Shown here piece by piece: positions 11,504 through 12,930 of a stretch of DNA of 64,000 bases; the stretch's first letter is position 1; every line of letters starts with the position of its first letter. The translations under genes were made by a program, and so were the position numbers. The stretch lies in the NCBI GenBank assembly GCA_002791295.1, contig PFWU01000049.1, forward strand, positions 47,350 through 111,349. Direction: 5' to 3'. The notes under the pieces are model-generated. The model was not told the DNA's origin and did not search any database. It saw only the letters and a program-made list of their open reading frames with translations. The DNA is from Candidatus Uhrbacteria bacterium CG_4_9_14_3_um_filter_50_9 (GTDB taxonomy: Bacteria; Patescibacteriota; Patescibacteriia; UBA9934; GWF2-40-263).

Positions 11504-11548
11504 CACCCGTCGCTTCAACAACTAACTATGCTGTTGAAGCGACGGGTG
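11504..11548 (-). terminator. 17-bp perfect hairpin immediately 3' of tRNA-Ser(GCT) (terminator or processing hairpin)
   Basis: cacccgtcgcttcaaca / tgttgaagcgacgggtg with a 11-nt loop. It overlaps the CCA end of the minus-strand tRNA and has no strong U-run. Confidence 0.4.
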
Positions 11549-11639
11549 GCGGAGAGGGAGGGATTCGAACCCTCGCGCCGGGTAAACCCGACCTACAGGA
11601 TTAGCAATCCCGCCCCTTCAGCCTCTTGGGTACCTCTCC
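11547..11639 (-). tRNA. tRNA-Ser (anticodon GCT), class II with long variable arm, CCA encoded
   Basis: The reverse complement reads GGAGAGGTACCCAAGAGGCTGAAGGGGCGGGATTGCTAATCCTGTAGGTCGGGTTTACCCGGCGCGAGGGTTCGAATCCCTCCCTCTCCGCCA. 7-bp acceptor stem, anticodon loop TTGCTAA, T-loop GTTCGAATC. Confidence 0.85.
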
Positions 11640-11642
11640 GTG

Positions 11643-11770
11643 GTAAACGATCCAGAATTGGTGATCTGCTTGTGCTTCGGCTGAACGTCGCCTCACGGTA
11701 GGATTTACCTACCGCTCGACGACGTTCAGCCTCCAGCACGGCGTAGCTCACTCAATTCTGAATCGTTTAC
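11643..11770 (-). ncRNA. Conserved structured RNA element (copy A, ~128 nt) directly 5' of tRNA-Ser(GCT); unclassified
   Basis: A 17-bp closing stem (gtaaacgattcagaatt / aattctggatcgtttac) encloses a second long stem and a hairpin with loop TAAAT. Three copies in the window maintain the helices by compensatory substitutions. Copy A ends 3 nt before the tRNA 5' end. Confidence 0.6.
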
Positions 11771-11788
11771 ATTCGATTTGTTTTTGAA

Positions 11789-11877
11789 TGGCGGAGAGGG
11801 AGGGATTCGAACCCTCGAGAGCTATTAACTCTGGCAGTTTTCAAGACTGCTGCCTTCAACCACTCGGCCACCTCTCC
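11789..11877 (-). tRNA. tRNA-Ser (anticodon TGA), class II, CCA encoded
   Basis: The reverse complement reads GGAGAGGTGGCCGAGTGGTTGAAGGCAGCAGTCTTGAAAACTGCCAGAGTTAATAGCTCTCGAGGGTTCGAATCCCTCCCTCTCCGCCA. Anticodon loop CTTGAAA. Confidence 0.85.
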
Positions 11878-11881
11878 CTAG

Positions 11882-12010
11882 GTAAAACGTCCAGGATTAC
11901 ACCATCTGCTTGTGCTTCGGTTGAACGTCGCCTCACGGTAGGATTTACCTACCGCTCGACGACTTTCAGCCTCCAGCACAGCGCATCTGGCGCAATCCTG
12001 AACGTTTTAC
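11882..12010 (-). ncRNA. Conserved structured RNA element (copy B, ~129 nt) directly 5' of tRNA-Ser(TGA); unclassified
   Basis: Closing stem gtaaaacgtccaggatt / aatcctgaacgttttac. The interior is nearly identical to copy A. It ends 4 nt before the tRNA 5' end. The arrangement is elementB-tRNA-elementA-tRNA on the minus strand, so a polycistronic transcript is likely. Confidence 0.6.
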
Positions 12011-12150
12011 ATTCGATTTATATTCGCTTTGTGGATCCTATTTTCATTGGACGTGGGGTAGAATACTTTAAAACAGGGGAAAGTTCAAGAGGGCCCTAAG
12101 TGCTGTACACAGCTGTCTTTTGACAGAAAACATGATAAACTAGAGCCACT

Positions 12151-12648
12151 ATGGCAGAGGAACAGCTTCAAGTTGATATCGGCCGACCGGTCCTTGAGTG
12201 GGAGGTCGACGAATATCCAAAGCATGATCGATCAAAATATTGGTACATTATTGGAGCCGTGGTTGGTGTCTTCCTTGTCATCTACGCCATTTCCACAGCC
12301 AACTTTTTGTTTGCGGTCATTATTCTGATGTTGGGGATCGTGACGCTTCTTTCTACGTTTCTTCCACCGGATCGTATCGTTGTTATTGTCACGACCACCG
12401 GTGTTGTCGTGGGTGATATGTATTATGACTACGAGGCGATTCGTGACTTCTCCATTGCGTATGATCCTCCAGAGGTAAAGTACTTGTATCTTGAGTTCCA
12501 TTCTCCATGGCAGCCACTCATTTCCATTCCTCTCGAAGAAATGGATCCAAATGCCATTCGTGAGAATCTCCTTCCATTCTGTTTCGAAAACCTCGACCGT
12601 ACGGAGGAAAGCTTGACTGATGTCATGCGAAGGATGTATAAACTCTGA
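12151..12648 (+). CDS. Hypothetical membrane protein
   Basis: 165 aa with two hydrophobic helices (YWYIIGAVVGVFLVIYAI, LFAVIILMLGIVTLLSTFL). Confidence 0.5.
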   Translation: MAEEQLQVDIGRPVLEWEVDEYPKHDRSKYWYIIGAVVGVFLVIYAISTANFLFAVIILMLGIVTLLSTFLPPDRIVVIVTTTGVVVGDMYYDYEAIRDFSIAYDPPEVKYLYLEFHSPWQPLISIPLEEMDPNAIRENLLPFCFENLDRTEESLTDVMRRMYKL

Positions 12649-12655
12649 CGAACGA

Positions 12656-12720
12656 ACGTGCATGTAGCGAACGTACATGTAGCGAACGTACATGTAGCGA
12701 ACGTACATGTAGCGAACGTA
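12656..12720 (+). repeat. Tandem direct repeat, 15-nt unit acgtacatgtagcga x ~4.3
   Basis: Perfect head-to-tail copies starting immediately after the stop codon at 12646-12648. The last partial unit merges into the 5' arm of element copy C. Each unit contains the palindrome tacatgta. Confidence 0.8.
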
Positions 12721-12847
12721 AAACGTTCAGGATTGCGTCAGATGCGCCGCTCTGCAGGGAGGAAAGTTCGTGAGACGTGGGCAAATCCCACGTCGAGCGA
12801 ATTTCCGACCGAAGAGCAAGCAGATGGTGTAATCCTGGACGTTTTAC
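12718..12847 (+). ncRNA. Conserved structured RNA element (copy C, 130 nt) directly 5' of tRNA-Arg; unclassified
   Basis: Closing stem gtaaaacgttcaggatt / aatcctggacgttttac. The internal stem ggaaagttcg / cgaatttcc and the hairpin gacgtggg-CAAAT-cccacgtc differ in sequence from copies A and B but keep the same pairing (covariation). Conserved linkers are cagatgcgc and caagcagatggtgt. Confidence 0.6.
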
Positions 12848-12850
12848 TCT

Positions 12851-12927
12851 GTACCCGTAGCTCAGTTGGATAGAGCGTCAGCTTGCGGAGCTGAAGGTCG
12901 CAGGTTCGAGCCCCGCCGGGTACACCA
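12851..12927 (+). tRNA. tRNA-Arg (anticodon read as GCG), CCA encoded
   Basis: GTACCCGTAGCTCAGTTGGATAGAGCGTCAGCTTGCGGAGCTGAAGGTCGCAGGTTCGAGCCCCGCCGGGTACACCA. Anticodon stem TCAGC/GCTGA with loop TTGCGGA. The T-stem has one A-C mismatch. Confidence 0.75.
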
Positions 12928-12930
12928 CCA

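Follow-up and report, generated by a model that had tools for sequence, protein, structure and literature searches.

Repetitive extragenic palindromic (REP) sequences and bacterial interspersed mosaic elements (BIMEs) are extragenic hairpins that show compensatory change, occur in either orientation within operons, and are conserved in place; REP hairpins are thought to be recognized in single-stranded form, on one strand, by a single-copy enzyme encoded elsewhere. Correia elements (CREE/NEMIS) have conserved 26-bp terminal inverted repeats (TIRs), TA duplications, promoters, and IHF sites, and the retroelements Ty3 and Dictyostelium TRE5/TRE3 insert at a fixed short distance from tRNA genes, where insertion is tolerated. 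Correia and enterobacterial repetitive intergenic consensus (ERIC) repeats are 100-200 bp long, vary in copy number between strains, and are co-transcribed with their neighbors into long RNA hairpins; RNase III cleaves Correia hairpins, and RNase E acts on ERIC-containing transcripts (PMC10969869). Rickettsia palindromic elements (RPEs) are inserted in frame in protein genes, where they encode a conserved peptide (PMC10969869). The bcr1 repeat of the Bacillus cereus group is a mobile transcribed element of ~155 bp with a strain-variable distribution and an RNA structure kept by compensatory changes (PMC3184786). Here we describe a family of hairpin elements of ~131 nt, three of which stand directly 5′ of tRNA genes in a 64,000-nt stretch of the Candidatus Uhrbacteria bacterium CG_4_9_14_3_um_filter_50_9 assembly (contig PFWU01000049.1, positions 47,350 to 111,349; hereafter the window, whose own coordinates we use).

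We interpret the family, with about even confidence, as non-autonomous interspersed hairpin repeats of Uhrbacteria/Patescibacteria, similar to REP sequences and RPEs, that would be recognized as a folded single strand and cut off pre-tRNAs by RNase P. An abundant repeat is unexpected in Patescibacteria, whose genomes rank among the smallest and most compact bacterial ones. The family is apparently undescribed, and the kind of element is already known: a full-text literature search found no such element described in Patescibacteria, and a 2026 paper on Patescibacteria tRNA introns does not mention it.

Structure of the element and its family

Both ARAGORN and the Rfam model RF00005 place tRNA-Ser(gct) at 11547-11639 (-), tRNA-Ser(tga) at 11789-11877 (-), and tRNA-Arg(gcg) at 12851-12927 (+). 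Each of these genes is preceded by one copy of the element in its own orientation. Copy A, at 11641-11772 (-), lies 5′ of tRNA-Ser(gct) and is also the spacer after tRNA-Ser(tga); copy B, at 11880-12012 (-), lies 5′ of tRNA-Ser(tga) and comes first among the structured features in the leader of the Ser operon; and copy C, at 12716-12849 (+), lies between the stop codon of a gene for a 165-aa protein and tRNA-Arg(gcg). We refer to all three as type 1. The hairpin base is 3 nt (A), 4 nt (B), and 3 nt (C) from tRNA position +1, and hairpins measured across the family are 122-134 nt long. Each window copy folds as one nearly continuous rod, with minimum free energies (MFEs) of -85.3 (A), -86.0 (B), and -79.7 kcal/mol (C) and folding z-scores of -12 to -15. 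None of 200 shuffled sequences folded equally well, and the opposite strands folded more weakly by 10-20 kcal/mol. The tRNA calls, the folding, and the position of the hairpin bases confirm a sequence-only reading of this DNA, which had described elements of ~130 nt just 5′ of the three tRNAs and in the same orientation; the compensatory differences that it listed among the copies are present, and the order that it gave for the minus strand (B, tRNA, A, tRNA, hairpin) is correct.

A core-pattern scan of a collection with one genome per species returned 21 stretches, six of which, from five metagenome-assembled genomes (MAGs), were confirmed by covariance model, while the remainder look like chance matches. 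Two of these MAGs are labeled Uhrbacteria, one 'Patescibacteria group', one is unclassified, and one is labeled Gammaproteobacteria. A second core pattern returned 25 metagenome contigs, all 25 of which were confirmed by covariance model, and homologs of the neighboring 165-aa protein are annotated as Candidatus Uhrbacteria. The search for further copies in related Patescibacteria was thus productive, with ~37 copies recovered from Uhrbacteria/Patescibacteria contigs. The sequence of the source genome that we examined amounts to ~75 kb (the window plus L052, a contig of a near-identical strain) and holds at least five to six copies. The window copies match covariance model R1 with 140 (A), 151 (B), and 136.5 bits (C), and model R2, which was built from 30 distinct copies, with 122, 117.5, and 117.8 bits, respectively.

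The alignment of these 30 copies, on which the pairing and strand-stability statistics below rest, contains a near-invariant core, in which the 5′ arm GAUGAGAUGCGCCG-NN-CUGGAGG stands opposite the 3′ arm CCGAAG-N'N'-CAAGCAGAUCGCC. The outer, inner, and apical stems differ freely in sequence with pairing kept, and every copy forms, on one specific strand, a rod of ~55 bp. The sequences cagatgcgc and caagcagatggtgt, first proposed as linkers, are not single-stranded: they lie opposite one another and make up an irregular helix that is conserved and contains tandem G.A pairs, a U.G pair, and a small 3x2 loop. The U.G pair is kept in 26 of 30 copies, tandem G.A juxtapositions are also present, and the two variable NN pairs within the core covary (CG/GC/UA). 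The apical loop varies across the family, and the YAAAT loop, once taken to be common to the element, is specific to copies A, B, and C.

RNAalifold predicts 45 pairs, 37 of which show double-sided compensatory changes. Paired cells make up 92.6% of the alignment at these positions, compared to 69.6% in shuffles, and cells with double changes number 300, compared to 84 in shuffles; neither value was reached in any of 500 shuffles, and sliding the 3′ partners by 1-3 columns reduced pairing to 34-42%. Covariation far beyond chance supports the earlier claim that the helices are maintained by compensatory change. The accompanying claim that such covariation argues against a recently copied repeat or an element with drifting inverted repeats is not supported: a mobile repeat is compatible with covariation, and the mobile, transcribed bcr1 also shows compensatory change (PMC3184786). 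In 30 of 30 copies, including those placed antisense to their neighbors, the sense strand folds more stably than its complement, with a mean difference of 11.6 kcal/mol. Totals of G.U pairs in the MFE structures differ little between the strands (84 vs 73), and the asymmetry comes mainly from the G.A and U.G pairs of the core.

No known RNA family accounts for the element, in agreement with the sequence-only reading. At the gathering score, only the tRNA models of Rfam pass in the window and in 21 related loci, and at E <= 10 no match to the element was found in 11500-12950, where the matches, all of them weak and well below the gathering score, are explained by the tRNA sequences or are marginal. 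T-box, 6S, signal recognition particle (SRP), tmRNA, RNase P, and Y RNAs, known ribozymes, and omega-RNA motifs were rejected because they gave no Rfam match, and on inspection by eye none of K-turn, hammerhead, hairpin ribozyme, SRP domain IV, C/D box, dif, or attC fits. Integron attC sites have the consensus boxes RYYYAAC ... GTTRRRY; some copies end in GTAAAAC ... GTTTTAC and others in unrelated sequence, neither of which fits, and no integrase was seen in the loci; we rejected this identity as well. An intrinsic terminator was rejected because most copies have no U-tract after the stem, a promoter inside the 3′ arm because no -10-like hexamer could be read from the sequence at the right distance, and a small open reading frame (ORF) or peptide because the frames are interrupted in most copies, as in copy B, where ATGCGCTGTGCTGGAGGCTGA runs into a stop codon.

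Genomic contexts and the tRNA boundary

Sixteen copies lie in sense orientation 5′ of tRNA genes, which include those for Ser, Arg, Asn, Thr, Tyr, Leu, Lys, Gly, and Pro. Four others are antisense and immediately follow a stable-RNA gene at its 3′ end, namely tRNA-Tyr (L008), tRNA-His (L026), tRNA-Arg (L003, a degenerate copy), and 23S rRNA (L031, where the copy lies between 23S and 5S rRNA). About half of the ~37 copies adjoin a stable-RNA gene. The sequence-only reading had raised the question of whether copies always lie 5′ of tRNAs; only about half do. The other contexts include a site 77 nt upstream of 16S rRNA (L030), an antisense position between atpE and atpF (L044/L029), positions just upstream of an HU gene (L037) and of a RimK-like gene (L025), a position upstream of a basic-protein gene (L023), and the spacer between pth and dprA (L035). 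One of the ~37 copies is intragenic: in L040 (2634-2761), it lies in frame inside an uninterrupted 401-aa ORF for a glycosyltransferase of family GT4, between its two Pfam domains, and is translated as a 43-aa insert (…LRNALKIDEMRRAGGVKRSSRSSATVRTLNTEAQADRDFESI…) in the interdomain linker.

The hairpin base lies 0-5 nt from tRNA +1 in all 15 cases measured. The 3′ end of the element faces the RNA gene in 20 of 20 copies beside a tRNA or the 23S 3′ end (16 in sense on the 5′ side, four antisense on the 3′ side), and the opposite polarity occurs in none of these 20. The distance to the upstream -10-like hexamer is variable, from 16 to 49 nt. Since promoter distance varies and tRNA distance is fixed, the position of the element is anchored on the tRNA, and we rejected insertion at the transcription start. 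By our estimate, well under 1% of intergenic DNA consists of tRNA 5′ flanks, which would put the enrichment of the element there at least at a hundred-fold. The preference might arise if a structure at the foot of the acceptor stem is targeted on either DNA strand, if the element moves by template switching or through cDNA primed by tRNA, or if a 3′ end made by RNase P is selected for. We know of no bacterial precedent for a tRNA 5′-boundary preference with fixed polarity and a spacing of 0-5 nt.

Spacing and polarity of this kind would also be expected of a multicopy trans-acting small RNA that uses strong tRNA or rRNA promoters and has a precise 3′ end made by RNase P just past the closing stem, the other copies being dead or differently expressed. 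Given the constant 0-5 nt gap, RNase P would leave a short 3′ tail on the hairpin, and the polarity rule would hold for antisense tRNA too, which may fold in a tRNA-like manner; moreover, length is constant (122-134 nt), and one strand carries a conserved core resembling a protein site. Yet no common promoter precedes the copies, the stems vary freely and hence contain no conserved single-stranded seed, and non-tRNA copies such as that of L044/L029 are equally conserved. We consider a small RNA improbable.

Several observations were made at individual sites. The HU (L037 1248-1260) and RimK-like (L025 3399-3409) genes begin 8 nt past the hairpin base and have no visible Shine-Dalgarno sequence; their translation or processing could be coupled to the hairpin. 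The degenerate antisense copy after tRNA-Arg in L003 (1134-1300) has an internal insertion, and its outer stem and T-run occupy the position of a simple intrinsic terminator in L034 and L039. In an Uhrbacteria MAG contig (L019 1-3900), spacers of 42-44% GC, each with a TTGACA-type promoter and one element in direct orientation, lie between segments of 60-73% GC, and one of these segments codes for a secreted MopE-like protein; the remaining contig has ~45-53% GC. Genes that were acquired horizontally and are framed by the repeat could account for this pattern, as could a chimeric assembly. The downstream flanks of non-tRNA copies show no consistent hairpin, and we therefore rejected the notion that the element always precedes a stem.

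Turnover and conservation of copies

The locus is syntenic in relatives, where a VirB4-like gene is followed further on by a ComF-like gene, two tRNA-Ser genes, the gene for the 165-aa protein, tRNA-Arg, and RecG. The three tRNA genes are present with no element in L048/L049, L050/L051, and L058, in which the 165-aa protein is 72%, 65%, and 74% identical to the window copy, respectively. In L047 (74%), one copy only is found, before tRNA-Ser(tga). The tRNA-Arg site is filled in L055 (98%) and L056 (88%), and probably in L057 (80%), where the outer arm is the same and the interior is different. At empty sites, 6-23 nt separate the two tRNA-Ser genes, and the distance from the stop codon to the start of tRNA-Arg is 6-16 nt in L047, L048/L049, and L050/L051 and 69 nt in L058.

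Empty sites bear on the possibility that the element is a dedicated pre-tRNA leader module, a cis-acting RNA that aids folding, processing, or regulation of the tRNA downstream. All three window tRNA genes discussed here carry a sense copy 3-4 nt upstream, 16 of the ~37 copies lie 5′ of tRNAs at 0-5 nt (15 measured), and candidate sigma-70-like promoters upstream of several copies suggest that these are transcribed as leaders. However, the orthologous tRNA-Ser/Ser/Arg genes are without the element in L048-L051 and L058, and only one of the three has it in L047; about half of the copies are away from tRNAs; and four are antisense at RNA-gene 3′ ends, one is intragenic, and another lies antisense within the atp operon. 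The leader module is largely refuted because orthologous sites are empty, and we regard it as quite unlikely. The sequence-only reading had likewise proposed a processing or regulatory module tied to tRNAs, which the same empty sites and the non-tRNA, antisense, and in-ORF copies contradict. For a cis-regulatory leader RNA of the riboswitch or T-box type, the antisense and intragenic copies and the empty orthologous sites were again the grounds for rejection.

Differences are also found between near-identical strains. L052 is 100% identical to the window across 1.5 kb except for two length differences, a fourth copy (D) in tandem directly 5′ of B and a tandem repeat with two fewer 15-nt units. 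Copy D (L052 21704-21835) is a mosaic that combines a C-like 5′ half and interior with a B-like 3′ core strand and is truncated at its 3′ end; as a result of joining C-like and B-like strands, its covarying NN pairs are mismatched. These comparisons show that copies have been gained, lost, tandemly duplicated, and recombined over short evolutionary timescales.

Two further differences concern the tRNA-Ser pair, whose order in the window (tga, gct) is swapped relative to L047, L048, L050, and L058 (gct, tga), and whose strand relative to the gene for the 165-aa protein varies among relatives. Recombination between element copies could be responsible for both. The 15-nt tandem repeat, CGAACGTRCATGTAG, has ~4 units at 12653-12715 (+) (repeat family D3) and abuts the 5′ edge of copy C; its unit begins with the same bases as the 5′ flank of the element (CGAACGTA). 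L052 has 30 nt (2 units) less of this tract than the window and L056 has 45 nt less, and L033 contains a partial 45-nt tandem duplication of the 5′ part of its element. Because of this variation, the 5′ edge of the hairpin seems prone to slippage. Contigs L022, L043, L053, L055, and L057 end inside a copy, as assembly breaks.

Resident copies change slowly. Copy C is identical at 125 of 130 positions between the window and L056, and tRNA-Arg at 75 of 77, while the DNA of the gene for the 165-aa protein is 79% identical and differs at 39 of 62 fourfold-degenerate sites (63%), which are saturated. Of the five differences in copy C, one is a double change from G-C to A-U, two are transitions compatible with wobble pairing, one affects a loop base, and the last is a further change; pairing is kept at every changed stem position. 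High identity extends over exactly the element plus the tRNA; the gene remains at 75-88%, and the sequence after the terminator is unalignable. These limits disfavor, though they do not fully exclude, a recent recombination tract as the source of the high identity. The antisense element between atpE and atpF is identical at 131 of 132 positions in L044 and L029, whose fourfold-degenerate sites differ at 30 of 140 in atpB and 11 of 45 in atpE; by our arithmetic, neutral divergence of ~22% would predict ~29 changes in this element, and one is seen. The slow change implies either purifying selection or replacement by conserved donor copies, and the interior swap in L057 and the mosaic copy D show that replacement occurs. 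Under both alternatives, the fold and the core of one strand are under selection, whatever the direction of local transcription.

This constraint is one ground for an explanation that we hold to be unlikely, that of a host-beneficial, 'domesticated' structured element in the manner of REP/BIME, in which the hairpin would be kept for its use to the cell at any site in highly transcribed DNA, with mobility secondary. Its possible roles include a platform for an abundant protein, an RNase III site, a stabilizer of the 3′ end of the upstream RNA after RNase P cleavage, and a cruciform in the DNA that handles supercoiling. Resident orthologous copies evolve 10-30 times slower than synonymous sites, the core is invariant across lineages with fully diverged stems, highly expressed genes (tRNA, rRNA, HU, the atp operon, and the basic protein) are overrepresented among the contexts, and copy C sits where an RNase P cut would leave the 3′ end of the upstream mRNA unprotected. 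Set against this, the same sites are empty in close relatives that keep the same genes, strains differ in copy number, one copy is in frame within an ORF, and copies occur in both orientations relative to local transcription although the conserved fold is on one strand only.

Presence polymorphism and a dispersed, short, palindromic sequence are what an ordinary miniature transposable element with inverted repeats (MITE) derived from an insertion sequence (IS) would show, with the outer stem as transposase-bound TIRs whose ends have drifted. In the family described here, however, conservation is lowest at the termini and highest in the interior core, no target-site duplication is present at the junctions compared, and no IS partner was found in the loci or among the window ORFs scanned, which makes this explanation very unlikely. 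No transposase, reverse transcriptase, or integrase was found by Pfam among the window ORFs scanned, which encode aminoacyl-tRNA synthetases, MiaA/MiaB, GatB, ThyA, RecG, and a cluster resembling a type IV secretion system (T4SS), and no transposase or integrase was seen in the copy-bearing loci. All-against-all clustering of ORFs from more than 30 loci recovered syntenic housekeeping genes only and no recurrent neighbor. Phage and plasmid collections gave no blastn match and viral contigs no match to the core pattern, and a phage or plasmid origin was rejected along with the MITE on these grounds.

The window also contains a diverged copy, which we call type 2, at 4785-4916 (-). It matches model R2 with 56.7 bits (E ~5e-11), equals type 1 in length and rod architecture, and retains of the core only GAUGAGAU/AGAUCGC; its MFE is -84.9 kcal/mol, compared to -59.7 for the other strand. 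This copy fills the spacer between a 548-aa ORF at 3128-4774 (+) and a PrgI-like ORF of the T4SS-like cluster at 4927-5358 (+), antisense to both; in relatives this spacer is only 10-24 nt. Model R2 finds further type-2 members at L052 1509-1641 (+) and L008 1-132 (+). A related rod hairpin of ~140 nt at 56375-56515 (-) (inverted repeats I3 and I7) matches R2 with 37 bits when filters are off and has an MFE of -67.8 kcal/mol (z = -11.4). It lies ~50 nt downstream of the stop codon of a 1058-aa ORF (56567-59743 (-)), resembles the outer and inner stems of the element (UUCAAAAUUG ... CAAUUUUG), and has no type-1 core; it may be a distant member of the same superfamily, with membership uncertain.

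Other features of the window are separate from the family. A hairpin of ~85 nt at 50872-50956, just upstream of the end of the gatB ORF, has arms of heptamer-like repeats (GATTAGC/GATTAGG) and is unrelated to the element. A 172-nt direct repeat (21076-21247 and 22415-22586, 72% identical) lies within adjacent minus-strand ORFs at 20511-21728 and 21730-23025, apparent tandem paralogs that are present in L001 too. Between tRNA-Arg and recG there is an unannotated ORF at 12986-13507 (146 aa on the plus strand, or 165 aa on the minus strand), whereas in most relatives recG follows within ~100 nt of tRNA-Arg. Neither of the two unannotated ORFs beside tRNA-Arg gave a Pfam match or showed homology to the ORF in the same position in L058, and a look-up of one window protein returned nothing on record.

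Proposed mechanism and comparison with known systems

A -10-like hexamer, TATTCT, lies at 12060-12065 (-), ~49 nt upstream of copy B. In relatives without the element, the hexamer (TACTCT in L050) stands 12-17 nt upstream of the first tRNA-Ser; a consensus sigma-70 scan found no full promoter around 12060-12065. Directly after tRNA-Ser(gct), a 15-bp hairpin at 11504-11545 (-), identified by reading the sequence, may mark the end of the transcript, with no T-run following it, and directly after tRNA-Arg there is an intrinsic-terminator-like hairpin with a T-run at 12933-12955 (+).

Under our preferred interpretation, that of interspersed hairpin repeats cut off pre-tRNAs, TATTCT would be the probable promoter of a precursor that carries, in order, copy B, tRNA-Ser(tga), copy A, and tRNA-Ser(gct) and ends at the hairpin after the latter, while copy C would be co-transcribed with the gene for the 165-aa protein and tRNA-Arg as far as the terminator. 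RNase P, by cutting at tRNA +1, would free the tRNAs and detach the hairpins, and RNase III may cut the rod first. Cleavage of a ~55-bp rod by RNase III is plausible by analogy with Correia elements (PMC10969869). The hairpins would then not be required for tRNA function. A trans-acting protein encoded elsewhere in the genome would recognize the core on a single strand of DNA or RNA in its folded state, as the RAYT (TnpA-REP) transposase does with REP hairpins, and this recognition would drive both spread and sequence conservation, which would account for conservation of the interior and not of the ends. Among the four roles offered by the sequence-only reading, a structured selfish element at tRNA 5′ flanks comes closest to the data.

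Several points weigh against this interpretation. No mobilizing enzyme was found in the loci or among the window ORFs scanned, neither the 15 tRNA junctions nor the comparison of filled with empty sites revealed a consistent target-site duplication or a common target sequence, and the ends vary while the middle is conserved, unlike in classical MITEs. Strong conservation in situ, including that of the operon-antisense copy, is not predicted by neutral decay of selfish DNA and fits a host function at least as well. A stable helix 0-5 nt from tRNA +1 might hinder RNase P, in which case insertions may not be neutral. Co-transcription and processing by RNase P and RNase III are predicted from sequence features, and the census of ~37 copies is biased toward those with an intact core, which the collection scans demanded.

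Taking the spacing, polarity, and conservation jointly, we also entertain, more tentatively, a reading with two forms. In one, the element would be of a homing type that precisely targets the boundaries of stable-RNA genes, using a folded single-strand intermediate, a dedicated protein, and perhaps the RNase P cut at tRNA +1 as a means of setting its own 3′ end. In the other, it would be a host-selected structured nucleic acid that marks highly transcribed genes, possibly a new class with a protein-binding core in ultra-small Patescibacteria. Both forms are compatible with the fixed polarity (20 of 20), with a spacing of 0-5 nt, and with a conservation in situ that far exceeds that of synonymous sites. 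If the boundary preference reflects targeting, it would represent a new mechanism of DNA or RNA recognition; if it reflects function, it would add a new layer to the architecture of pre-tRNA and rRNA transcripts in the candidate phyla radiation. For genome analysis, element copies break assemblies and can inflate ORF predictions, and the covariance model can be used for their annotation.

Each of the described systems shares some of these properties. Ty3, TRE5, and TRE3 provide an analogy only, as they are autonomous retroelements that target Pol III factors; the element has no reverse transcriptase, no coding capacity, and a bacterial transcription context, and no homology is implied. Correia elements differ in that the element has variable ends, shows no duplication, and contains an internal, strand-asymmetric conserved part. 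The bcr1 repeat differs in its 5-bp direct-repeat flanks and in folding into two stem-loops, and no link to tRNA genes appears in the review passages on it (PMC3184786). RPEs are similar in that they are 100-150-bp palindromes of a reduced genome, with no linked transposase, in intergenic and in-frame positions (PMC10969869); the review makes no mention of tRNA (PMC10969869). Compared by description only, RPEs belong to another phylum and encode a conserved peptide, whereas the element conserves an asymmetric non-coding core. REP/BIME sequences share the conservation of a hairpin on one strand with compensatory changes in the stem, but they are ~35 nt long, compared to ~131 nt for the element, in which no conserved 5′ tetranucleotide was identified, and no RAYT/HUH gene was seen among the window ORFs scanned. 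What sets the Uhrbacteria family apart is thus an unusual combination of REP-like, strand-specific hairpin conservation, RPE-like in-frame insertion, and a preference for the tRNA 5′ boundary.

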